From sequence record SRR20825006_2360: DNA of 33,256 nt. One strand, given 5' to 3'. The position numbers were made by a program, and so were the translations under genes. Position 1 is the first letter of the stretch. Each line of letters opens with the position of its first letter. Under the pieces are notes generated by a model. It worked only from the letters and a program-made list of their open reading frames with translations, was not told the origin of the DNA and searched no databases. Below are positions 9,301 to 20,947 of the stretch, piece after piece.

Positions 9301-9672
9301 TCAAAGTCTAAATACCTGGAATAAAAGGTATGGCTTTACTGAAGCGCTTAAAGAAGAACGCGCTTTAGTTTTTAAATGTTTGTATTTAAAGTAAAAACAT
9401 CTAGGAACTGATGTCTGTGTAGCGAGGGTTGCGGTTGCAAGGCTTTGGCTTGCTTTAGAAATTGAACGATCGCTTTCTTCAATTTCAAATTCTGCGATTC
9501 TTAATTCTAAGTTTTGACTGTGAACCACGTCAAAATGTGGTTGATTCAAGTCATTGATGAAGGTTTCTTCAAAAGCATTGGATTGCATTGCCGAATCAGC
9601 CGGCAGGTAAGAACTACCTGAAAGCTGCACAAAGCCAGCAAGGAATACAATAAATGAAAAAAGAAACTTCAT
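9301..9672 (-). CDS. Small hypothetical protein with signal peptide, first gene of the RND unit
   Basis: 123-aa ORF, MKFLFSFIVFLAGFVQLS N-terminus, C-terminus PYLLFQVFRL; starts 23 nt downstream of a consensus promoter. Confidence 0.65.
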   Translation of the reverse strand: MKFLFSFIVFLAGFVQLSGSSYLPADSAMQSNAFEETFINDLNQPHFDVVHSQNLELRIAEFEIEESDRSISKASQSLATATLATQTSVPRCFYFKYKHLKTKARSSLSASVKPYLLFQVFRL

Positions 9673-9856: not shown

Positions 9857-11155
9857 CTATTTGATATCTAAAGCGGTGGAAACTTTGCGCATTTTAGCCT
9901 TGATTTCGGCAAATCCCGGATTATGAATGCTACCTATGTGGGTATGATTTTTTCCGGCCTCAGGCTTGTACGTCCCATCTTGTACCTGGCCTCCTATTTG
10001 TTGATAAGCCTCTCTAAACGATTTACCTTCCACTACCAGATCGTTAATGCTATCAACAGTAAAGAGGTATTTATACTTCTCATCATTTAGGTCAATTTCT
10101 TTAACGATCACCTGACCAATCGCATAATCAAAGATCTCTAAAATATCCTTGATGCTCTCAACCGCGCTTATCGTATTTTCCTTCAATAATTGATAATCTC
10201 TGTGATACCCGCTGGGCAAATTATTAGTAATTAGTACCATTTCGGTACTTAAGGATTGAATCTTATTACACTTCCCACGAATTAACTCAAAAACATCAGG
10301 ATTCTTTTTGTGCGGCATAATACTGCTTCCTGTTGTTAGATGCTCAGGGAAACTCACAAAGCCAAAATTCTGGCTCATATACAAGCACACATCCATCGCA
10401 AAACGAGACAGTGTGTTGGCTAAACTTCCTAAGGTCGAAGCCAGTGTACGCTCGCTTTTACCGCGCGCCATTTGCGCTGCAACCACGTTATATTTCATTG
10501 TGGCAAAACCCAATTCTTTGGTCGTCATCTGGCGATCTATAGGAAACGAACTTCCGTAACCTGCCGCAGAACCCAGTGGATTTTGGTCAACAATATCTTG
10601 AGTCGCATTGATCAATATTACATCGTCGATCAATAATTCGGCATACGCTGTAAACCAAAGACCAAAACTGCTAGGCATTGCAACCTGTAAATGCGTATAG
10701 CCCGGCAACAACTTATCTTTATGCGTCTCACCAAGATGCATTAAGGTTTCAAATAAAGAAACCGTACGCGCTTTAATTTGCTGTAATTGTTCTTTGTAAT
10801 ACAATTGAAGCGCTACCAAAACTTGATCGTTACGTGAGCGCGCCGTGTGTACTTTTTTACCGGTATCGCCAAGAATAAGCGTTAATTCTGCTTCTAGTTT
10901 AGAATGAATGTCTTCATATTCAGGCTCTATAAAGAAATCCGGATTTTGCGTATGCGCTTCTAAAATATCAAGCTGCGGAAGCAAACTTTTTAATTCCTCA
11001 TCGGTAAGAATACCTATTTTATTCAGCATTTTTACGTGCGCGCGTGTCGCTTGAACATCATATTTAGCAATATGCACATCGATCTCACGATCGTTACCCA
11101 CCGTAAAATCGATGATCTTAGTATCTATATCAGCACCTTTATCCCAAAGTTTCAT
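9857..11155 (-). CDS. argH: Argininosuccinate lyase
   Basis: EDIHS, HTARSRNDQV, LPGYTHLQ.AMP, PLGSAAGYG, TGSSIMPHKKNPDVFEL. Confidence 0.96.
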   Translation of the reverse strand: MKLWDKGADIDTKIIDFTVGNDREIDVHIAKYDVQATRAHVKMLNKIGILTDEELKSLLPQLDILEAHTQNPDFFIEPEYEDIHSKLEAELTLILGDTGKKVHTARSRNDQVLVALQLYYKEQLQQIKARTVSLFETLMHLGETHKDKLLPGYTHLQVAMPSSFGLWFTAYAELLIDDVILINATQDIVDQNPLGSAAGYGSSFPIDRQMTTKELGFATMKYNVVAAQMARGKSERTLASTLGSLANTLSRFAMDVCLYMSQNFGFVSFPEHLTTGSSIMPHKKNPDVFELIRGKCNKIQSLSTEMVLITNNLPSGYHRDYQLLKENTISAVESIKDILEIFDYAIGQVIVKEIDLNDEKYKYLFTVDSINDLVVEGKSFREAYQQIGGQVQDGTYKPEAGKNHTHIGSIHNPGFAEIKAKMRKVSTALDIK

Positions 11156-11168
11156 ATCTCGTGTGTTT

Positions 11169-11216
11169 TCATTCCCTAGAAATAGGGAATCTAATTATTC
11201 CGCGAAGGCGGAAATC
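11169..11216. repeat. Tandem pair of REP-like palindromes (ATTCCC-N8-GGGAAT type) between argE and argH
   Basis: ATTCCC-TAGAAATA-GGGAAT (11171-11190) and ATTCC-GCGAAGGC-GGAAAT (11197-11215). Confidence 0.65.
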
Positions 11217-12281
11217 TTAAAGTATACTTTTCAGCAAATCTATATAAATTTCGATTCCTTCTTCAATTTCATTTACATAGATAAATTCGTTAGCACTGTG
11301 TGAGCGTGTGCTATCACCGGGACCCAATTTAAGTGAAGGGCAGCTCAATACCGCCTGATCGCTAAGTGTTGGCGAACCGTAAGTACTTCTTCCTAGCGCA
11401 ATGCCGGCTTTAACCAAATCGTGATCTACCGGAATTGAAGAAGAGTTCAATCGCAAACTACGCGGAATGATCTCGTCGCACGGCGCTTTTTGCTGAAGTA
11501 AATCGGCTATTTCCTTATTGGAATACGCATCATTCACGCGCACATCAACAACCAATTCCACATCAGCCGGAACCGCATTATGCTGCTTCCCTCCTTTGAT
11601 CTGCGTAACGGTCATTTTTACATCGCCCAACGCATCTGAAGATTTTTCAAATTTGAAATTCTTAAACCATTCTAAAACTTCAATACAATTGTAAATCGCG
11701 TTGTTATCGTTAGGATGCGCTGCGTGAGAAGGCGTTCCTTTCACTTTGGCGTCAAACACCACAAGACCTTTTTCAGCAACTGCGAGATTCATCAAGGTAG
11801 GTTCACCCACGATCGCAACATCAACCGGCGGAATCACCTTAAGCATACTGTTCAAACCATTAGGACCACTGCTTTCTTCTTCACCACTGGCAACAATAAC
11901 CAAATTGTACTTTGGATTTTCCTGAGCGTAGAAATAAGTGAAGGTTGCGATTAACGAAACTAAACATCCACCTGCATCATTACTCCCTAAACCATACAAT
12001 TTACCATCTTCTACATCCGGACTGTACGGATCACGTGTATACCCGTTATTAGGCTGCACCGTGTCGTGGTGGCTGTTAAGCAGCAATGTAGTTTTGCCTT
12101 CTTGAAAGTCTTTATTGGTTGCCCAGATATTATTGGCCTGCCTTTTAAAAGGAATATCGTGCGCTTTAAACCAAGCTTCAATTATCGCAGCGGTACCTTC
12201 TTCTTCAGAAGAAAAAGATTGGGTTGCAATCAATTTTTTAAGTAGCTCAATCGCTTCCTGTGTAAGTTGCTCTCTATTCAT
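11217..12281 (-). CDS. argE: M20 metallohydrolase, ArgE-like (N-acyl-ornithine/citrulline deacylase)
   Basis: LLNSHHDTV, LYGLGSNDAGG, SGEEE, VGEPT, HAAHP, HSANE; arg operon context. Confidence 0.88.
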   Translation of the reverse strand: MNREQLTQEAIELLKKLIATQSFSSEEEGTAAIIEAWFKAHDIPFKRQANNIWATNKDFQEGKTTLLLNSHHDTVQPNNGYTRDPYSPDVEDGKLYGLGSNDAGGCLVSLIATFTYFYAQENPKYNLVIVASGEEESSGPNGLNSMLKVIPPVDVAIVGEPTLMNLAVAEKGLVVFDAKVKGTPSHAAHPNDNNAIYNCIEVLEWFKNFKFEKSSDALGDVKMTVTQIKGGKQHNAVPADVELVVDVRVNDAYSNKEIADLLQQKAPCDEIIPRSLRLNSSSIPVDHDLVKAGIALGRSTYGSPTLSDQAVLSCPSLKLGPGDSTRSHSANEFIYVNEIEEGIEIYIDLLKSIL

Positions 12282-13057
12282 TACAGTCTTAAGGTTGTAA
12301 AATTAGCATCTTTATGGTGTAGCATTTCGGGCTTTCCTAAACGTACTTGCTGCACACCGCCTTTTAAAGCGTAAAAACAGTTTTCCATTTTCGGAAGCAT
12401 TCCGTCTGCTATTATTTTTTCTTCTAACAATTCAGCATATTTCGCTGAATCAATATCTTTTACTACTGAAGTATCGTCGTTAATATCGAGTAAAACGCCG
12501 TTCTTTTCGAAGCAATAATTCAATGTAACCTCATAGTTTGTTGAAAGTCCACGTGCCAATTCACACGCGATCGTATCTGCATTAGTATTGAATAACTGCC
12601 CGTTTCCGTCGTGAGTGATCGCACAAAATGCGGGTGTAATCCCAATACTCAAAAGCTTATCGATCATCTCTGAATCTACAGCTACCACGTCACCCACAAA
12701 ACCAAAATCGATTTCCTTGACAGGTCTTTTTACCGATAAGATCGTATTCCCGTCTGCTCCCGAAAATCCAATCGCATTGCAGTTTCTCGCCTGCAAGCCG
12801 GCGACAATGCTTTTATTCACTTTTCCGCCGTAAACCATCGTGATTACTTCAACCGTTTCCGCATCGGTAATTCTACGACCATTCACCATATTCACCGGAA
12901 TTGCTAACCGTTCAGCCAGCTGACTCGCCAGCTTTCCGCCACCGTGCACCAAAATCTTCGGCTCCGGAAGCGCTGCAAAAGCATCTAAAAAAGATTGAAG
13001 ATCTTCTTCTTTCTCGATAATGTTTCCGCCAACTTTGACGATGTTTAGCTTTTTCAT
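12281..13057 (-). CDS. argB: Acetylglutamate kinase (N-acylglutamate kinase)
   Basis: VKVGGN, LVHGGG, GRRITD, GFVGDV, NTNADTIA, GMLPK. Confidence 0.94.
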   Translation of the reverse strand: MKKLNIVKVGGNIIEKEEDLQSFLDAFAALPEPKILVHGGGKLASQLAERLAIPVNMVNGRRITDAETVEVITMVYGGKVNKSIVAGLQARNCNAIGFSGADGNTILSVKRPVKEIDFGFVGDVVAVDSEMIDKLLSIGITPAFCAITHDGNGQLFNTNADTIACELARGLSTNYEVTLNYCFEKNGVLLDINDDTSVVKDIDSAKYAELLEEKIIADGMLPKMENCFYALKGGVQQVRLGKPEMLHHKDANFTTLRL

Positions 13058-13066
13058 TTTCGGCTT

Positions 13067-14017
13067 TTAATTCAGGTTTTCTAATATCTTTTTCAAAACC
13101 ACCTGGGCCGAAAACGTACGGTTGTTTGCCTGTTCGATCACGACAGATTGTGTTCCGTCTAAAACTTCGTCTGCAACAATCACATTACGACGTACCGGTA
13201 AACAATGCATAAATTTAGCATCACCCAGTTTTTTATCGGTAATCGTCCAACTGCTGTGCGAATCTACAGTTGCCAAAACTTTACCGTAATCCTCATAATT
13301 ACTCCAGTTTTTGACATAGACAAAATCTGCATCTTTTAAGGCCTCATCTTGATCATAAACAACGGGCGTATCCTTCATCGTGGCGTCACTGAGTTCATAA
13401 CCTTTAGGATGCGTAACGGTAAGTTCAACATCCATTTTTTGCATCATCCCAATAAACGAATTGGCCACAGCGTGTGGTAATGCTTTAGGGTGAGGCGCCC
13501 AACTCAATACCACTTTTGGCTTTTTCTTTTGAGAAAGCTCCGTGATGGTAATAGCATCTGCCAAGGCTTGTAACGGGTGTGCCGTTGCACTTTCCATATT
13601 AACTACCGGGACTGTAGCGTATTTTACAAAATTGGAGATCACGTATTCTGACTCGTCTTTGTCTTTATCGGTCAAGGTTGGGAAAGCACGCACCGCAATC
13701 ACATCACCGTATTGAGAGATCACTTTGGCCGCTTCTTTCACGTGCTCAGAAGTATCTGCATTCATCACAGTGCCGTCTTCAAATTCTAACTTCCAGGCGT
13801 CGCTGTTAAAGTTCATCACCGTAACATTCATTCCTAGGTTACTTGCTGCTTTTTCTGTACTTAGACGCGTACGCAAACTCGAATTGAAAAACAGCATCAC
13901 CAGGCGCTTGCGCTTTCCTAAATGTTCATATGCATATGGATTTGCTTTTAACGCGCGTGCTTCTGCGATTAATTCCTGTAGATCTGTAATGTCGTCTAAA
14001 CCGGTGTATTTTTTCAT
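13067..14017 (-). CDS. argF: N-acyl-ornithine carbamoyltransferase (ArgF' type; probably N-succinylornithine-specific)
   Basis: FFNSSLRTR (not STRT), HPLQALAD, WAPHPKALPHAVANS, HCLPVRRN are ArgF' signatures rather than canonical OTCase. Confidence 0.9.
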   Translation of the reverse strand: MKKYTGLDDITDLQELIAEARALKANPYAYEHLGKRKRLVMLFFNSSLRTRLSTEKAASNLGMNVTVMNFNSDAWKLEFEDGTVMNADTSEHVKEAAKVISQYGDVIAVRAFPTLTDKDKDESEYVISNFVKYATVPVVNMESATAHPLQALADAITITELSQKKKPKVVLSWAPHPKALPHAVANSFIGMMQKMDVELTVTHPKGYELSDATMKDTPVVYDQDEALKDADFVYVKNWSNYEDYGKVLATVDSHSSWTITDKKLGDAKFMHCLPVRRNVIVADEVLDGTQSVVIEQANNRTFSAQVVLKKILENLN

Positions 14018-14076
14018 TAGTTGATTCCTGTCAAAATGTTAGTTAGCAGCCGAAATCTCTGCTAGATTTATAGTTA

Positions 14077-15210
14077 TTATAAGTTGTTTAATTCTATTTT
14101 AAGTGCTTCAAAAAACTGATCGATATGCTCGTTCTGAACCGTTAATGGTGGAAGAATACGTATCAAGTTTTTGTTTTTTGCACTTCCTGTAAAAATATGC
14201 TGATCGTAAATCAGTTTTTTGCGTAAGGCCGCAGTATCGAAATCAAATTCGATACCCAGCATCAAACCGCGCCCTTTTACCGCTTTGATCTGCGGAATTT
14301 CAGTAGTTTTTGCTTTGAAATGATCTGAAACACGCAACGCATGAGCCATCAAATCTTCTTCTTCTAAAACTTCAAGAACGGTCAAGGCTGCGGTACACGC
14401 CAAGTGATTCCCGCCAAATGTGGTTCCCAGCATTCCATATTCTGCTTTGATCGAAGAGTGAATGAGAATTCCTCCAACCGGAAATCCGTTCCCCATTCCT
14501 TTAGCCATTGAGATCAATTCAGGCTCTACGTTGTATTCTTGAAATGCAAAGAATTTGCCGGTACGGCCAAAACCTGCCTGAACTTCGTCTGCAATAAGGC
14601 AGGTTCCGGTTTCCTTGCATAGTTTATCAACGCCTTCGTAAAACTCAGCAGTGCTGATATCTAAACCACCAACACCTTGAATAAACTCCACGATTACCGC
14701 ACAAACATCACCTTTTGCTAAAACTGCGGCTAAAGCGTCCAGATCTCCAAGTGGTAAAAATTCAACTTCTTGCTGTGCATTTATGGGAGCGACAATCTTA
14801 GGGTTATCGGTCGCGGCAACGGCTGCAGATGTTCTTCCGTGAAAACTGTTATGAAAAGCGACTACTTTTTTTCTTCCGGTAACGAAAGATGCCATTTTCA
14901 GTGCATTCTCATTAGCCTCAGCCCCACTGCTACACATAAATAATTGATAGCCGTGACAATTAGCCTGAAGCGGTAATTTTTCGCCTAAAGCTTCCTGTAA
15001 TGGGTTTTTAACCGCATTGCTATAAAAGCCGATATCGCCCAACTGCTTGGTAAGATTTTCTACATATTTAGGATGTGCGTGACCTATGGAGATTACCGCG
15101 TGACCACCGTATAAATCTAAGTATTTGGTAGGTGCAGCATCATAAACCCAGACGTCCTGAGCTTTAATGGGTGTCACATCATAAAGCGGATAAACATCAA
15201 ATAAACTCAT
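14077..15210 (-). CDS. argD: Acetyl/succinylornithine aminotransferase (class III PLP)
   Basis: YLDLYGGHAV, SGAEANENALK, FHGRT, DEVQAGFGRTG, AKGMGNGFP, TTFGGN. Confidence 0.93.
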   Translation of the reverse strand: MSLFDVYPLYDVTPIKAQDVWVYDAAPTKYLDLYGGHAVISIGHAHPKYVENLTKQLGDIGFYSNAVKNPLQEALGEKLPLQANCHGYQLFMCSSGAEANENALKMASFVTGRKKVVAFHNSFHGRTSAAVAATDNPKIVAPINAQQEVEFLPLGDLDALAAVLAKGDVCAVIVEFIQGVGGLDISTAEFYEGVDKLCKETGTCLIADEVQAGFGRTGKFFAFQEYNVEPELISMAKGMGNGFPVGGILIHSSIKAEYGMLGTTFGGNHLACTAALTVLEVLEEEDLMAHALRVSDHFKAKTTEIPQIKAVKGRGLMLGIEFDFDTAALRKKLIYDQHIFTGSAKNKNLIRILPPLTVQNEHIDQFFEALKIELNNL

Positions 15211-16010
15211 TATTTCTGATCTGTTTTTATAACATTAATTTTATTGAAAGATGCAACCATACCTTGAATCAACGACGAACTCAAGCCTTTGTGTTCCATC
15301 TCGTTCAATCCTTCTATGGTGCAGCCTTTTGGTGTGGTTACACGATCGATCTCTTCTTCAGGATGATTCCCGGAATCGATCAATAATTTGGACGCACCAT
15401 TGCAGGTGTGCATCGCCAATTCTTGTGCTTCTTTAGCATCAAATCCTAATTGAATTGCTGCCTGTGTTGTGGCACGAATTAAGCGCATCCAGAATGCAAT
15501 TCCGCTGGCGCAGACTACTGTTGCTGCTTGCATCTGCTTTTCAGGAATGATCAAGCTGTTCCCTAATCTGTTGAAAATAGCTTCGGCGATCTTAATACGC
15601 TTCATTCCTTTTTCATTACTCGCCAAACACGTCATTGATGCACCAACGGCAATCGCTGTATTTGGCATCGCACGAATGATGAATTGGTCTGTACCCACAA
15701 TATCTTCAATCTGCGAAATCTGATAGCCTGTGATCGTTGAGATCAACACGTGCTTATCGGTCAATTCGTTTTTGATATCGTGTAAAATATTTGCCAATTG
15801 TGCGGGTTGTACTGCAAAAATTAAAATATCAGATTTTTGTACCGCCTCGACATTGTCTGAAGTCACAAACACATTTTTATATTCGGCGTACGCCTCAATT
15901 CCCGCAGGATTACGACGCGTCATATATAACGAAGTGATCGCATTGTTGGTAATTAAACCTTTAGCTATAGAAAGTCCCAAATTACCCGTACCTATGATTG
16001 CTATTTTCAT
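15210..16010 (-). CDS. proC: Pyrroline-5-carboxylate reductase
   Basis: KIAIIGTGNLG, RAMPNTA, ASGIAF, DRVTTPKGCTIEGL. Confidence 0.93.
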   Translation of the reverse strand: MKIAIIGTGNLGLSIAKGLITNNAITSLYMTRRNPAGIEAYAEYKNVFVTSDNVEAVQKSDILIFAVQPAQLANILHDIKNELTDKHVLISTITGYQISQIEDIVGTDQFIIRAMPNTAIAVGASMTCLASNEKGMKRIKIAEAIFNRLGNSLIIPEKQMQAATVVCASGIAFWMRLIRATTQAAIQLGFDAKEAQELAMHTCNGASKLLIDSGNHPEEEIDRVTTPKGCTIEGLNEMEHKGLSSSLIQGMVASFNKINVIKTDQK

Positions 16011-16026
16011 ATGTAATATTTTTTTA

Positions 16027-16049
16027 TCATTTCCATGAAGACGGAAATC
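16027..16049. repeat. Third REP-like palindrome, between argC and proC
   Basis: TC-ATTTCC-ATGAAGAC-GGAAAT-C; same 6-8-6 layout, TC/C flanks and central GAA as 11169-11191. Confidence 0.55.
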
Positions 16050-16070
16050 GTTTAAACGCCTCTCTAAGGC

Positions 16071-17048
16071 TTAGAAATAACTTCCTTTTAAATTCAAGCC
16101 TTCGGTTTGTGGTAAGCCAAAAATCAAGTTCATATTCTCTACCGCCTGTCCTGAAGCTCCTTTTAAAAGGTTATCAATACAACTAGTGATCAATAATTGA
16201 TTTTCATGCTTGTGCAAGTGAATCAGACATTTATTGGTGTTCACCACTTGCTTCATATGAATATCTGAATCGGAAACAAAGGTAAATGGCGCTTCTGCAT
16301 AAAAATCGGTATAGATTTTTTTAATAGCTTCCAGATCACCTTCAAATTTGGTGTACGCAGTTGCGAAAATTCCACGAGAGAAATTCCCTCGATTTGGAAG
16401 AAAGAAAATCTCTTTGTCAAAACCGCTTTGCAAACTTTTAACCGACTGATTGATCTCACCCATATGCTGATGGGTAAACGGCTTGTAATACGAAAAGTTA
16501 TTGTCTCTCCAGGTATAATGCGTTGTTGCTGAAAGTGAGGTTCCCGCACCGGTAGCACCGGTAACCGCATTGATATGAATGTCTGAAGTTATATTTTTTG
16601 AATCTGCTAAAGGAAGTAATGCCAACTGGATCGCAGTAGCAAAACATCCCGGATTGGCAATAGAACCCGCTTGTTTGATCTCGTCTTTATTCAGTTCCGG
16701 AAGGCCGTAAATGAATTCTCTTCCTTGAAACTCAGCGTCTGGTTTTAGCCTGAAATCGTTACTTAAGTCAATAATGATGGTTTCTTCAGAAAACACATTC
16801 TTATCTAAAAATGCAGTTGAATTTCCGTGTCCTAAACACAAGAAAACCACATCAACGTCAAAATCAACCGTGTCTGCAAAACGAATATCAGTACTTCCTA
16901 AAAGGTCCTGATGCACATCGCTCAAAAGATTTCCGGCATTTGAAGTACTGAAAACAAAACTTAGATCAACATACTTATGATTCAGTAAAATTCTGATTAA
17001 CTCTCCTGCCGTATAACCGGCTCCACCAATTATTCCAGCTTTGATCAT
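16071..17048 (-). CDS. argC: N-acetyl-gamma-glutamyl-phosphate reductase
   Basis: GIIGGAGYTAGELIR, IDLSNDFR, YGLPE, IANPGCFATA, DNLLKGASGQAVENMN. Confidence 0.96.
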   Translation of the reverse strand: MIKAGIIGGAGYTAGELIRILLNHKYVDLSFVFSTSNAGNLLSDVHQDLLGSTDIRFADTVDFDVDVVFLCLGHGNSTAFLDKNVFSEETIIIDLSNDFRLKPDAEFQGREFIYGLPELNKDEIKQAGSIANPGCFATAIQLALLPLADSKNITSDIHINAVTGATGAGTSLSATTHYTWRDNNFSYYKPFTHQHMGEINQSVKSLQSGFDKEIFFLPNRGNFSRGIFATAYTKFEGDLEAIKKIYTDFYAEAPFTFVSDSDIHMKQVVNTNKCLIHLHKHENQLLITSCIDNLLKGASGQAVENMNLIFGLPQTEGLNLKGSYF

Positions 17049-18232
17049 GAGTCTCCGTTTACGTGGTTATAAATTTTATTTTGATTCCCGGTGATTTTGA
17101 TAAAGCCTTTAGCATCATCTGCCGTCCAGCCTTTGTTCATCTCACCATACGCACCAAACGAAGCATTCATCAAGTCGTGATCAGATTTTATTCCTTCTAA
17201 AGTGAATCTATACGGCTGAAGCGTTACATACACTTCTCCTGAAACGTTCTTTTGACTATCGGTTAAAAAAGCCTCCAAATTACGCATTGCAGGATCAAGG
17301 TATTGCCCCTCGTGAAGGTGCATTCCATAGAAATTAGATAAATAATCTTTGTGCTGCATTTGCCATTTTGTAAGCGTGTGCTTCTCTAACAAATGATGCG
17401 CTTTTAAAATAATCACAGGTGCAGCAGCTTCAAAACCTACACGACCTTTGATCCCGATAATCGTATCTCCCACATGAATATCACGACCGATACCAAACGG
17501 AGCCGCAAGCTTTTGTAAGGCTTCAATATTTTCTACCGGAGATCCTGATTTGCCATTTACAGCGGTTAGTTCGCCCTTCTCAAAAGTCAAGGTTACTTTT
17601 TCTGCTTCAGACTTTTCTACCTGAGAAGGAAAAGCAGATTCCGGCAAACCTTGGTGTGAAGTCAAGGTTTCACTTCCGCCAACAGAAGTTCCCCATAGTC
17701 CACGGTTTATAGAGTATTGTGCTTTTTCCCAAGACATCTCAACCCCGTGACTTTTTAAATAATCGATCTCCTCCTGACGCGAAAGTTTTAAATCTCTAAT
17801 TGGCGTGATGATCTCGATCTCAGGTGCCAAAGTTTGAAAGATCATATCAAAACGCACCTGATCGTTTCCTGCACCAGTGCTTCCGTGAGCGACATATTCT
17901 GCACCAATAGACTTTGCATAATTGATGATCTCAACCGCCTGAATAATACGTTCTGCACTTACCGAAAGCGGATAGGTATTGTTTTTCAAAACATTTCCAT
18001 AGATCAAATACTTAACTACTTTGTCATAAAAGCGGTCTACCGCTTGTACATTTTTGTAGGTTTTTGCCCCGATTTTTAAGGCTTTAGATTCGATTTCGTC
18101 AATCTCTTCTTGCGTAAAACCACCGGTATTAATGCTTACCGCGTGAACTTCAAATCCTTTTTCTTCTGAAAGGTATTTTGCACAATAACTGGTATCTAAG
18201 CCGCCGCTGTAGGCGAGAACTAATTTTTTCAT
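17045..18232 (-). CDS. argG: Argininosuccinate synthase
   Basis: LAYSGGLDTS, AHGSTGAGNDQVRF, IGIKGRVGFEA; ATGA overlap with argC. Confidence 0.96.
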   Translation of the reverse strand: MKKLVLAYSGGLDTSYCAKYLSEEKGFEVHAVSINTGGFTQEEIDEIESKALKIGAKTYKNVQAVDRFYDKVVKYLIYGNVLKNNTYPLSVSAERIIQAVEIINYAKSIGAEYVAHGSTGAGNDQVRFDMIFQTLAPEIEIITPIRDLKLSRQEEIDYLKSHGVEMSWEKAQYSINRGLWGTSVGGSETLTSHQGLPESAFPSQVEKSEAEKVTLTFEKGELTAVNGKSGSPVENIEALQKLAAPFGIGRDIHVGDTIIGIKGRVGFEAAAPVIILKAHHLLEKHTLTKWQMQHKDYLSNFYGMHLHEGQYLDPAMRNLEAFLTDSQKNVSGEVYVTLQPYRFTLEGIKSDHDLMNASFGAYGEMNKGWTADDAKGFIKITGNQNKIYNHVNGDS

Positions 18233-18279
18233 TTTATTCTATTTATTCTGAAAACGCTCGGTAAGTGAGCCTAAGGTTT

Positions 18280-18945
18280 TTATTCGTCTTTTTTTTTATC
18301 TTTTTTCAAAAACAAGTGTTCTTTGATGCTTTTTAAGCGGGTAAATGCTTTAGGATTTACCTCTTCTTTCTCACGAACTCTTTGATTGATTTTCTCTTCA
18401 ATTTCCTGCTTTTTCTTTTCTTCTTTTTCAGGATCATAAAGCATTCCTGTGCACAAACACATTTTTTGCTCAGTACGTTGAAGAATGTCGTAGTTTCGGC
18501 AAGTTTGGCAACCTTTCCAGAAGGTAGGATCATCTGTCAATTCTGAGAAGGTTACAGGGCGATATCCCAAATCTGAGTTGATCTTCATCACGGCAAGACC
18601 GGTGGTGATCCCAAATACTTTAGCATCAGGATATTTAGCTCTGGAGTGGTTAAAGATCGCTTCTTTGATCTGGCGCGCAAGTCCGCTACCTCTATAATCC
18701 GGATGTACAATTAAACCCGAATTAGCAACAAACTTACCGTGACCCCAAGCCTCGATGTAGCAAAAACCGGCAAATTTCTCACCGTCAAGGGCGATCACTG
18801 CGTTGCCGTTTTCCATCTTGGTAATGACATATTCAGGTGTACGTTTGGCGATTCCGGTGCCGCGTACTTTTGCAGATTCTGCGATGGTATCGCAAATATA
18901 TTGTGCATATCCCGCATGGGATTTGTTAGCAATAATAATTTCCAT
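18280..18945 (-). CDS. GNAT-family acyltransferase, probable Bacteroidota ArgA-like N-acylglutamate synthase
   Basis: GNAT motif A LIVHPDYRGSGLA; RGTGIAKR, FWKGCQTC, CLCTGMLY; first gene of the arg operon. ATG at 18945 preferred over TTG at 18951. Confidence 0.8.
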   Translation of the reverse strand: MEIIIANKSHAGYAQYICDTIAESAKVRGTGIAKRTPEYVITKMENGNAVIALDGEKFAGFCYIEAWGHGKFVANSGLIVHPDYRGSGLARQIKEAIFNHSRAKYPDAKVFGITTGLAVMKINSDLGYRPVTFSELTDDPTFWKGCQTCRNYDILQRTEQKMCLCTGMLYDPEKEEKKKQEIEEKINQRVREKEEVNPKAFTRLKSIKEHLFLKKDKKKDE

Positions 18946-19040
18946 ATTCAATTGAATTGGAAGTTAGAAAAAAGTGAAATTGTAATTTGAATCGAAAGTT
19001 GGAACCGGACTCACCTAAGTTCCCTAAAAATATGCACCCA

Positions 19041-19178
19041 CTAGGGGCGGCGGCGCTCACGGCGGCGTACAGGAATATAAACCAATGTAGTGTTGGTTCT
19101 GTTAACTGGGTATAAAGAATTAAGCAACGCATTTACCGCTTGCTTTAGTTCCGTTATATGTCTTTTTATTCCCTTCAT
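19041..19178 (-). CDS. Putative Arg-rich leader peptide of the arg operon (45 aa)
   Basis: Hand translation MKGIKRHITELKQAVNALLNSLYPVNRTNTTLVYIPVRRRERRRP*; 6 Arg codons in the last 8 sense codons; stop is 95 nt upstream of the GNAT start. Confidence 0.75.
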   Translation of the reverse strand: MKGIKRHITELKQAVNALLNSLYPVNRTNTTLVYIPVRRRERRRP

Positions 19179-19330
19179 TGTTGATGCTAAAATACAAAGT
19201 AGATTTAAATGAACCTCCAGAATTTACTAGAAATATCAAATAAATCTACTTTTTTAAATATTCTTCAGTTTTCAATACAAAAAGCACTTTTCACTGATTG
19301 ATTCATAATAAACCAAATCATTTTTGAATG

Positions 19331-20947
19331 TTACAGCAAGTAATCTGTACTTACAAAGTTTGATTTTTTGGTATCCAACAGCTCATTAAGGATCGCATTG
19401 TTGTATGCATTGTCTTTAGAAGCCACAAAGGTACGTATGGAGAACGAACGCAAGGCATCGTGTACGCTTAATGTACTCACCGCTGAATCCTTTCTACCTG
19501 TAAACGGATAAACATCTGGACCGCGCTGACACGAACTGTTTAAATTCACACGACATACTAAATTAACCAAGGTGTCTATCAAGGGAGCAAGTGCTTTTAC
19601 ATCTTTACCGAAAAGACTTACTTGCTGTCCGTAATTCGATTCAGCCATATCATCTAAAGGTTCGTCGATGTGTTTAAACGTCAACACCGGAACTACTGGG
19701 CCAAATTGCTCTTCTTTGTAAACCTCCATCTCTTTAGTCACCGGAAACAATACCGCCGGCCAAATAAAGTTTTCTGAACGCTCCCCTCCTTTTGCGTTGA
19801 TCACTTTTGCGCCTTTGGCTTTAGCATCATCAATCAATTGCTGAATATAATCGGGTTTTGAAGGTTCTGGGAGCGGCGTAAGTTTCACATTATCTTCCCA
19901 GGGCAAACCAAATTTTAAAGCATCAACAGCTTCAGCATATTTTCTATTAAAGGTTTCTGCGATATTTTCATGTACATAGATCACTTTCAACGCTGTACAG
20001 CGCTGACCGTTAAATGACAGTGTTCCGGCGATGCATTCTGCAACTGCAAGATCAAGATCAGCATCCGGTAAAATTATTGCGGGATTTTTTGCTTCGAGAC
20101 CTAAAACCAAACGCAAACGGTTTTGTTTTGGGTGCAATGCTTGAAGTGAATTGGCCGAAGAACTATGACCAATTAAAGCTAGAACATCCACCTTTCCGGT
20201 TTTCATAATTGGTGTTGCCACAGCTCTACCTCTACCAAAAAGAATGTTCACCACTCCGGCAGGGAAACTTTCTTGAAAAGCTTCAAGCAACGGCGTGATT
20301 AAAAGAACGCCGTGCTTAGCAGGCTTAAACACAGCTGTATTCCCCATAATCAACGCAGGAATTAGCAAGCAAAACGTCTCGTTAAGCGGGTAATTATAAG
20401 GCCCTAAACAAAGAACGACTCCTAGCGGTCCGCGTCTAATATGTGCGTGAATACCACCTTCTTTGTAGAATTTGGCACTCTCCCGATCCATATTCTTATA
20501 GTCTTCGATGGTATCAAGAATATATTCTACCGTACGATCAAACTCTTTTTGCGAATCAGGATAATTTTTACCAATCTCCCACATCAGCAGTTTTACAATG
20601 AGTTCCCGCTTTTCTTTCATTTTTGTAACGAAAGTTTCCATACACTTAATACGGTTGGCAACTTTCATTGTAGGCCACAAGCCCTGACCGCGATCATAGG
20701 CTTTGTGCGCAGCATCAACTGCTGCAATAGCTTCAGATTCGCCCAAAGAAGGAATAGAGCCTAAACGAGTTGGTTGACGCTCTCCATCTTTTTCTGTATG
20801 AATGCTTGAGAAAACATCTGCTACTTCACCATTCCAATTGTGCATTTTTCCGTCAATTAGATAGGTGCGCTGCTCAATAGGGTCAACTTTAAACTGATCT
20901 GGAATATCTGTGGGTAATTGTTTCATAGGTTGATTAGATTTTGACAA
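19331..20947 (-). CDS. gapN: Aldehyde dehydrogenase, probable non-phosphorylating NADP-dependent glyceraldehyde-3-phosphate dehydrogenase
   Basis: [61 protein letters not shown]; start uncertain (TTG 20947 or the ATG 7 codons downstream). Confidence 0.75.

Follow-up and report, generated by a model that had tools for sequence, protein, structure and literature searches.

How do bacteria that appear to lack the repressor ArgR sense arginine? Arginine synthesis serves textbooks as the example of control by this repressor, and the question is raised here by a stretch of 33,256 nucleotides of a marine flavobacterium, from sequence record SRR20825006_2360 (hereafter the window, that is, the whole stretch at its full length), on whose minus strand an arginine operon of nine genes is preceded by a short open reading frame (ORF) that ends in a run of arginine codons. 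An earlier note on this DNA, made from the letters alone, had proposed that this upstream ORF (uORF) senses arginine in the manner of an attenuator. Judged by its conservation, the leader is a real and family-wide cis-regulatory element of the arginine operon, and it probably acts as a ribosome-mediated arginine sensor in a bacterial family without ArgR. Such a sensor would be akin to a leader-peptide attenuator, with a predicted structure that places it outside the classical class.

The absence of the repressor is the premise of the question. The DNA-binding domain of ArgR (PF01316) was found in none of five genomes with a completeness of 99-100%, the nearest genome (99%) among them, and in one of 151 Flavobacteriales genomes, the C-terminal domain PF02863 not having been searched in either set. 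That sole match (G132:C33:165612-165746, minus strand) is marginal, with 26.9 bits, and lies inside a 312-aa frame; genome G132 carries the leader motif too. A control search for PF01316 detected the domain in nine of 14 well-known genomes, Bacteroides thetaiotaomicron among them. In the Bacteroidales, argR is encoded directly upstream of the GNAT gene, on the same strand, in eight of the nine loci tested (two further loci were left out), as the earlier note had stated for the equivalent operon of Bacteroides. The leader and the repressor thus occupy the same place in sister orders.

The leader ORF and its conservation

The elements on which the argument turns in this section are the following.

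19041..19178, minus strand: leader ORF, 45 codons plus TAG, with in-frame conservation in 12 related loci
19047..19067, minus strand: Arg codon run, CGC CGC CGT (codons 38-40), GAG, CGC CGC CGC (codons 42-44)
9857..18945, minus strand: controlled operon, from ORF calls and family matches (NCBIfam; Pfam for GNAT)

The leader ORF starts with the ATG at 19178-19176 and stops with the TAG at 19043-19041, 95 nt before the ATG of GNAT (18945), the first of nine co-oriented genes in the order GNAT, argG, argC, proC, argD, N-acetylornithine carbamoyltransferase, argB, an ArgE/DapE-type deacylase and argH. The closest GNAT proteins are those of Leeuwenhoekiella palythoae and L. blandensis, each with 99% identity. 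The encoded peptide is MKGIKRHITELKQAVNALLNSLYPVNRTNTTLVYIPVRRRERRRP, followed by the stop, and the 3' end of the frame reads CGC CGC CGT GAG CGC CGC CGC CCC TAG, which gives the ending RRRERRRP-stop. Arg accounts for six of the eight final sense codons, compared with 3.3% of the 8389 codons in the 19 long ORFs of the window; the remaining two Arg codons of the leader are both AGA, and among the Arg codons of those long ORFs CGC makes up 19% and CGT 43%. The exact peptide is also present, unnamed, in a public gene-call collection, where it had been called as a gene in metagenome assemblies. The 45-codon uORF with an Arg-rich end, its distance of 95 nt and the nine co-oriented genes behind it were all correctly given in the earlier note, and the ORF, its frame and the position of its stop are kept across genera.

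That conservation was assessed in loci collected around the GNAT gene, of which 30 came from genomes near G001 and 76 from named genome records, with more added through an RNA model (R1, see below). The wider-family set consists of 70 distinct Flavobacteriaceae leaders bearing the motif of the downstream hairpin H2; one of them has no stop in the search range, so that ORF counts refer to 69. The Arg frame is the frame with the most Arg codons before a stop just upstream of H2.

At close range, 12 relatives carry the leader ORF with 44-46 codons, and every insertion or deletion among them consists of whole codons. The variable sites in these 12 related loci are distributed over the three codon positions as 21/17/35, with an excess at the third, and the ratio of nonsynonymous to synonymous variation (pN/pS) of the ORF has a median of 0.44 (uncorrected, 73 pairs). 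As far as can be read from sequence, the two together are the pattern of a translated sequence under moderate constraint. At wider range, the Arg frame is open over a median of 49 codons, versus 16 in the other two frames of the 70 leaders, and reaches at least 30 codons in 65/69 leaders versus 29/138 control frames. An ATG, GTG or TTG giving at least 25 codons is available in 65 of the 69 (an ATG in 37), and in 22 of the 70 leaders a start codon lies exactly 31 codons before the stop, being ATG in 10, TTG in seven and GTG in five; the genera with this 31-codon frame include Sinomicrobium, Neptunitalea, Winogradskyella, Lacinutrix, Olleya, Oceanihabitans, Pontimicrobium and Mangrovimonas. Without translation there would be little reason for a column at a constant distance from the stop to vary among start codons and nothing else, so translation is likely, and we infer that the leader ORF is translated. 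The same 31-codon frames, found in many genera, correct the impression of the earlier note that the peptide is unusually long, which does not hold in general.

The Arg codons are kept as well: 61/69 leaders have three to six Arg among the last nine codons. A uORF with C-terminal Arg runs, which the earlier note had suggested looking for in relatives, is conserved in them. The peptide sequence itself differs widely between genera and its middle varies freely, while the N-terminus carries a motif common to several genera (HIT, HIS, NIS, QIF; H-I-[ST]).

Two hairpins behind the Arg codons

The most conserved part of the leader is a pair of hairpins, H1 and H2, which the earlier note did not contain.

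19035..19049, minus strand: hairpin H1, CGCCC, loop C-UAG-U, GGGUG; five pairs, terminator-like in a pattern scan
19024..19034, minus strand: U-rich linker CAUAUUUUUAG, single-stranded, between H1 and H2
19001..19023, minus strand: hairpin H2, lower stem GGAACU/GGUUCC, bulge UA, upper stem GG/CC, pentaloop UGAGU

The last Arg codon supplies the 5' arm of H1 together with the first two letters (CC) of the Pro codon, and the stop of the uORF falls in the loop. By minimum-free-energy (MFE) folding of a 43-nt stretch, the stop codon overlaps the hairpin loop in 57 of the 70 distinct leaders; another 12 score with the stop outside the loop, although three of these (L025, L079, L084) possess the hairpin and have a different structure as their MFE fold. 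The layout is preserved with four stem sequences: CGCCC/GGGUG; GCAC/GUGC in Zunongwangia; CACGC/GCGUG in L101-L104 and L108, with UGA in the loop; and CAGGCC/GGUCUG in a Flavobacterium sp., which still ends in Arg-Pro-stop with AGG as its Arg codon. The loops themselves vary (UAG, GUAA, UUA, CUUUGA), and the linker that joins H1 to H2 is U-rich and about 11 to 16 nt long in relatives. In Zunongwangia the last codon has changed from Pro to Thr and the change is compensated on the other arm of the stem, so that the Pro-stop ending, taken in the earlier note as a mark of an arrest peptide, is at least partly a by-product of the RNA hairpin.

Across leaders, the lower stem of H2 has five to seven pairs and is joined, by way of a short bulge on the 5' side, to an upper stem that is invariably GG/CC; this is closed by a near-invariant pentaloop, and the consensus is AGGYGNGUCC. 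The lower stem shows compensatory changes in six of six pairs, with 98.7% of cells paired in 56 model-aligned leaders (50 distinct); for H2 overall, 94.7% of cells are paired versus 89.0% in shuffles and at most 57.5% with the partners slid, and none of 500 shuffles reaches the observed values, in an alignment (A2) that was fitted to the covariance model and hence favours the structure. An independent MAFFT alignment of 26 leaders gives compensatory changes in five of the eight predicted pairs, and in L033 one pair of the upper stem has gone from G-C to A-U. The frequent U-G wobble pairs indicate that H2 is RNA on the operon strand.

Other roles for H2 found no support. An inverted repeat acting as a DNA operator is ruled out by the frequent U-G pairs and the compensatory changes. 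A Shine-Dalgarno-like function of the loop (AGGUGA) is not kept by the variants AGGCGC, AGGUGU and AGAUGU; initiation in Bacteroidota is not known to rest on Shine-Dalgarno pairing. A canonical intrinsic terminator fits neither the weak stem nor the tail, which is no richer in T than its surroundings. Furthermore, a search for a pseudoknot of the H2 loop, by mutual information between its two variable positions and 125 flanking positions, gave nothing beyond relatedness.

How specific is this arrangement to the arginine operon? The covariance model R1 finds one strong match per genome in six Flavobacteriaceae genomes, all six adjoining GNAT-argG, and two weak matches in another family of the order, both again adjoining GNAT-argG; weak matches elsewhere (L037-L039, L041, L043-L050) were treated as chance. 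Of the 76 loci from named records, 73 were searched with R1, and 56 of these have a match on the gene strand upstream of GNAT, roughly 35 to 145 nt before its start; no match was obtained in 17, namely L077, five Flavobacterium spp. and eleven Bacteroidales loci. Across a sample of genomes from the phylum, R1 matches 4/11 Flavobacteriaceae genomes versus 0/140 others. Rfam 15 returned only miRNA and snoRNA models far below their gathering scores for positions 18000-20000 of the window (E up to 10), and no match for 20 related loci (E up to 0.1).

Several other loci carry diverged or different leaders. In the five Flavobacterium spp. L110-L114, about 60-130 nt before GNAT, a diverged motif that R1 misses has an H1 counterpart (CA)GGCC-GUAA-GG(UCUG), a mini-ORF ending in Arg-Pro-stop (e.g., M-R-L-R-P-stop) and an H2 counterpart in the form of a GC hairpin with the pentaloop UCCGY, which in L112 and L114 is followed by UUUGUUU and looks terminator-like. 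L077, another of the Flavobacteriaceae, has neither an R1 match nor an H2 anchor, and an upstream ORF reading MLIIKNKNREFSPKRLSLRERSY-stop is found about 222-290 nt before GNAT; the arg leader seems to have been rebuilt there. In L127-L130 (genus g36) the arg operon lacks H1 and H2, and a conserved ATG ORF lies about 260-345 nt before GNAT, reading MNKISLHITSLSRT(I/N)SP..SPEVRM/TLS. in L128-L130, with two CGG codons. The ORF of genus g36 shares the H-I-T and S-P-G motifs with the ORF of the window and with a second Leeuwenhoekiella group, which suggests a common origin of the leader peptides.

That second Leeuwenhoekiella group (L014, L016, L020, L021 and L022, which are the same as L062-L065; L015 and L017, with L061) carries a different upstream ORF, ending ISPGRRIRRPSSNARF-stop or reading MISPGRRTERRRCARS-stop, with a covarying hairpin of its own (GCGCACAG/CTGTGCGC versus GCGCATTA/TAATGCGC); the downstream ORF of L014, L016, L020 and L022 has no stop in the loop and continues across both H1 and H2. 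In many other genera there is a second, upstream ORF of about 21 codons, with an ATG start and an ending of RRR to RRRRR plus stop. In L089 it lies at about 900-965 (235-300 nt before GNAT), and it is found likewise in L090, L091, L093, L075, L076, L069, L080, L092, L072, L078, L105, L109, L068 and L074. Its last Arg codons and its stop form the 5' arm of an AU-rich hairpin, after which comes a long U run that sits directly before the start codon of the 31-codon ORF, and the two ORFs look like a tandem attenuator. The lineage of the window is without this upstream ORF; its leader ORF is longer and has more Arg codons (six versus about four).

How the leader might act

How could such a leader report on arginine? 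In the reading that we favour, a ribosome would translate the 45-codon ORF and, when charged tRNA-Arg is scarce, would stall on the six CGC/CGT codons of the last eight positions, the run at 19047..19067 being the proposed stalling site. Because the Arg codons adjoin H1 and partly form it, the stalled ribosome would keep H1 unfolded and would stay at the foot of the linker and H2; with plentiful arginine, the ribosome would reach the stop and be released, and H1 and H2 would fold. The two states would then correspond to high and low expression of GNAT-argG...argH, the arginine-dependent stalling and the direction of control both being presumed. Within this reading, and roughly speaking, the output may be Rho-dependent termination or polarity set by the position of the ribosome, which we hold to be the leading candidate while still doubting it. 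Two others, an RNA switch that opens the hairpin around the start of GNAT and weak intrinsic termination at H1 or H2, are each less probable; protection of the linker from ribonucleases (RNases) is an outside chance, and the rest falls to something else.

Two further hairpins belong to this discussion.

18941..18961, minus strand: GNAT start-codon hairpin, UCCAAUUC / GAAU-A-UGGA, from the consensus fold of 10 Leeuwenhoekiella leaders
19079..19099, minus strand: hairpin inside the leader ORF, GAACCAA / TTGGTTT, from the MFE fold, with three pairs kept in the genus alignment

All eight pairs of the GNAT start-codon hairpin are invariant in the 10 Leeuwenhoekiella leaders, and inspection by eye did not find it in other genera. 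The segment CUAACUUCC, which ends in the first bases of the 5' arm of this hairpin, can pair by eye with the 5' arm of H2 (8/9 pairs); this pairing was considered as an antiterminator and is not relied on, being genus-specific and without covariation. A near repeat of the H2 5' arm, AAGGGAAU, lies at codons 2-4 of the leader ORF. The hairpin inside the ORF may, on a weak comparison by eye, be the counterpart of a covarying hairpin (P0) inside the 31-codon ORFs of other genera.

A number of observations weigh against the codon-sensing reading, some concerning the sensor and others the output. Eight of the 69 leaders have only zero to two Arg among the last nine codons, and the choice of CGC in the Arg run of the window can be explained by the hairpin alone. 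H1 has only four to six pairs, and the U run is set back, beginning 4 nt after the stem in the window. Simple occlusion cannot tell the two states apart, since H1 would be covered to the same extent whether the ribosome sits at the stop or is stalled farther back, on the final Arg codons. The median energy of H2, -6.8 kcal/mol, is weak, and in the 8-nt tail behind it the modal number of T is three, with at least five T in only 7/70 leaders and a local T fraction of 0.47. The leader is no more stable than shuffled sequence (z = 0.21 and 0.86), and thermodynamic stability alone therefore says nothing. Consensus folds of 10 and of 21 leaders gave only consecutive hairpins and no mutually exclusive antiterminator, and no conserved upstream complement to either arm of H2 was seen by eye in the aligned leaders. 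Finally, the invariant loop of H2 is without a role in the stalling model, and it suggests a partner.

The attenuator-type sensing put forward in the earlier note is thus upheld in one part, the conserved and apparently translated ORF with its Arg run, and not in the other: classical attenuation is not supported, because no terminator/antiterminator pair of the trpL or hisL kind was found. Might the leader then be an attenuator of a new type, which does without such a pair? Release at Arg-Pro-stop in a hairpin loop would in that case be coupled to the folding of the sequence-specific H2, which would bind a signal or a factor, e.g., arginine, a pathway intermediate, tRNA-Arg or a protein. We give this version a minor though real chance; if true, one RNA would bring together two measures of arginine status, the codons responding to charged tRNA and H2 to a second signal.

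Among the alternatives to codon sensing, the one that survives best makes H1 and H2 a sensor of their own, as a riboswitch-like RNA or as the site of an arginine-responsive protein, with the ORF as an accessory or the Arg codons as a mere reflection of GC-rich stems. H2 lends itself to this, being the most conserved element, with a covarying stem and a near-invariant loop, and lying outside the ORF, where the stalling model leaves it idle; its shape (lower stem, 5' bulge, G-C/G-C upper stem, small loop) may resemble that of arginine-binding RNAs such as TAR. Nonetheless, little of the small element is both unpaired and conserved, H1 has variable loops, Flavobacterium spp. keep the layout with another H2 loop (UCCGC), and the start codons, the frame and the position of the stop are conserved beyond what the stems require, which makes this explanation unlikely.

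Termination after proline is slow, and TnaC is a known arrest peptide. It could be the nascent chain, with its H-I-[ST] N-terminus and its RRP end, that stalls the ribosome at Pro-stop when free arginine or a pathway intermediate is abundant, switching the operon off (like the fungal arginine attenuator peptide) or on (like TnaC or SpeFL). The 31-codon length fixed in 22 leaders of several genera, the purifying selection on the peptide, the N-terminal motif common across genera and the retention of Arg-Pro-stop with different codons (CGC CCN, AGG CCG) where the H1 stems differ would all agree with an arrest peptide. It would have no need, though, of an Arg codon run, which is yet the most regular coding feature, nor does it account for extra upstream ORFs that end in RRRRR-stop, for the different ORF ending in Gillisia and five other leaders, for the Thr of Zunongwangia with its compensated stem, or for a peptide middle that varies freely while the RNA there keeps a hairpin. 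Codon sensing combined with RNA structure is the better fit to the Arg runs, to the Pro-to-Thr change and to the variable middle, and we consider an arrest peptide improbable.

A classical attenuator with an intrinsic terminator, either H1 with the U-rich linker or H2 with its pyrimidine tail, blocked directly by the stalled ribosome, is more doubtful still. H1 meets a simple terminator pattern, and the U run follows it directly in some relatives (L018, the same leader as L067); in other genera the hairpin and long U run at the end of the upstream ORF have the same look, as does the GC stem followed by UUUGUUU that replaces H2 in some Flavobacterium spp. Against this stand the short stem of H1 and its set-back U run in the window, the weak stem of H2 with a tail not enriched in T, the missing antiterminator in the consensus folds and the fact that a terminating ribosome would cover H1 too. 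As for a small protein with its own function, or for similarity due to neutral conservation of the promoter region, moderate purifying selection and the gene calls in metagenome assemblies could be cited, but the position is fixed at one operon, and the covarying RNA, the Arg run and the stop codon within a loop are signs of an element that acts in cis; with a peptide that differs so widely between genera, this explanation is very hard to believe.

Neighbouring features, known systems and significance

Upstream of the ORF, a promoter-like element is placed so close to the start codon that it bears on how translation would begin.

19187..19194, minus strand: promoter-like -7 box TATTTTAG, a pattern match only, 8 nt upstream of the uORF ATG

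The box is present where the earlier note had placed it, and it was judged against the Bacteroidota promoter consensus. The block TCATTTAAATCTACTTTGTATTTTAGC, which holds it, is near-identical in 13/13 close relatives (L001-L013), the box itself being TATTTTAG, TACTTTAG or TAATTTAG, while the DNA farther upstream diverges. If the box is used, the uORF would be leaderless or nearly so. Metatranscriptome contigs from two studies end at 19173 and 19171, near the leader ATG. Two more contigs, one from the second of these studies and one from a third, continue upstream past it; the ends are ambiguous and may be assembly branch points between strains. A sigma-70 promoter scan of the window was uninformative for Bacteroidota. 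At the other end of the operon, a 123-aa ORF (9301-9672, minus strand) between argH and a gene for a resistance-nodulation-division (RND) efflux adaptor has no NCBIfam match.

Compared with known systems, the leader comes close to the attenuators trpL, hisL, leuL, thrL, pheL and ilvL of enterobacteria, with which it shares a short leader ORF before an amino-acid biosynthetic operon, a run of cognate codons near its end, hairpins after it and the position of the ribosome as the presumed signal. Unlike them, it concerns arginine, lacks a detectable terminator/antiterminator pair, carries its stop codon inside the loop of H1, possesses in H2 one more hairpin, whose loop is invariant, and has an ORF of 31-46 codons. 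With ArgR and its ARG boxes it would share the feedback control of arg genes and the place held by argR in Bacteroidales, ArgR being, unlike the leader, a DNA-binding protein. The fungal arginine attenuator peptide (arg-2/CPA1 uORF) senses free arginine through the nascent peptide, with scanning and nonsense-mediated decay (NMD); it likewise precedes an arginine-biosynthesis gene and places its stall at the termination codon, but it is eukaryotic and has no Arg codon run.

Two other bacterial leaders are tied to arginine. SpeFL reportedly senses ornithine in the exit tunnel, arrests the ribosome and, unlike the leader of the window, is said to control ornithine decarboxylase (polyamine synthesis) and to act with Rho. 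Work on this leader (orf34/SpeFL) in Salmonella and E. coli (PMC6386406) concerns arginine and speF. The likeness, drawn by description, lies in a uORF tied to arginine/ornithine metabolism, in Arg codons, in RNA rearrangements and in a similar ORF length. According to a study of rbfL in Staphylococcus aureus (Kohl et al. 2026, PMC13009471), the gene behind this leader is set by how slowly Arg codons are decoded when arginine is limiting: rbfL carries a pair of rare Arg codons (AGA/AGG), it overlaps with the ribosome binding site of rbf, and low arginine leads to repression of this biofilm regulator. It is thus also a leader peptide with Arg-codon decoding but one that does not control arginine synthesis.

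The full-text literature searched describes no attenuator leader for any arg biosynthetic operon, and for those of Bacteroidota neither a leader peptide nor an RNA motif, in line with the statement of the earlier note that it knew of no characterised bacterial example; leader-peptide candidates of Flavobacterium psychrophilum listed in the supplement of PMC9723704 (Table S7, Appendix D9) may bear on novelty. The paper itself speaks of 'strong clues' to attenuation by leader peptides ahead of amino-acid operons in this species. PMC2965389 does not mention arginine, and in PMC4833913 Bacteroidetes appear only in statistics of leader distance.

What would the leader mean for these bacteria? It would add arginine to the amino acids that are sensed by leader translation, and H1 and H2 represent an RNA motif that is not in Rfam. 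With its stop placed in the loop of a hairpin, its ORF of a fixed 31 codons and the frequent use of TTG or GTG as the start, the leader has an unusual layout, and this makes it useful for studying translation-coupled gene control in Bacteroidota. Above all, the Flavobacteriales are abundant in sea and soil, and ArgR is almost wholly missing from those of their genomes that were searched; the literature found gives no account of their arginine sensing, for which the leader offers a testable answer in a whole family.

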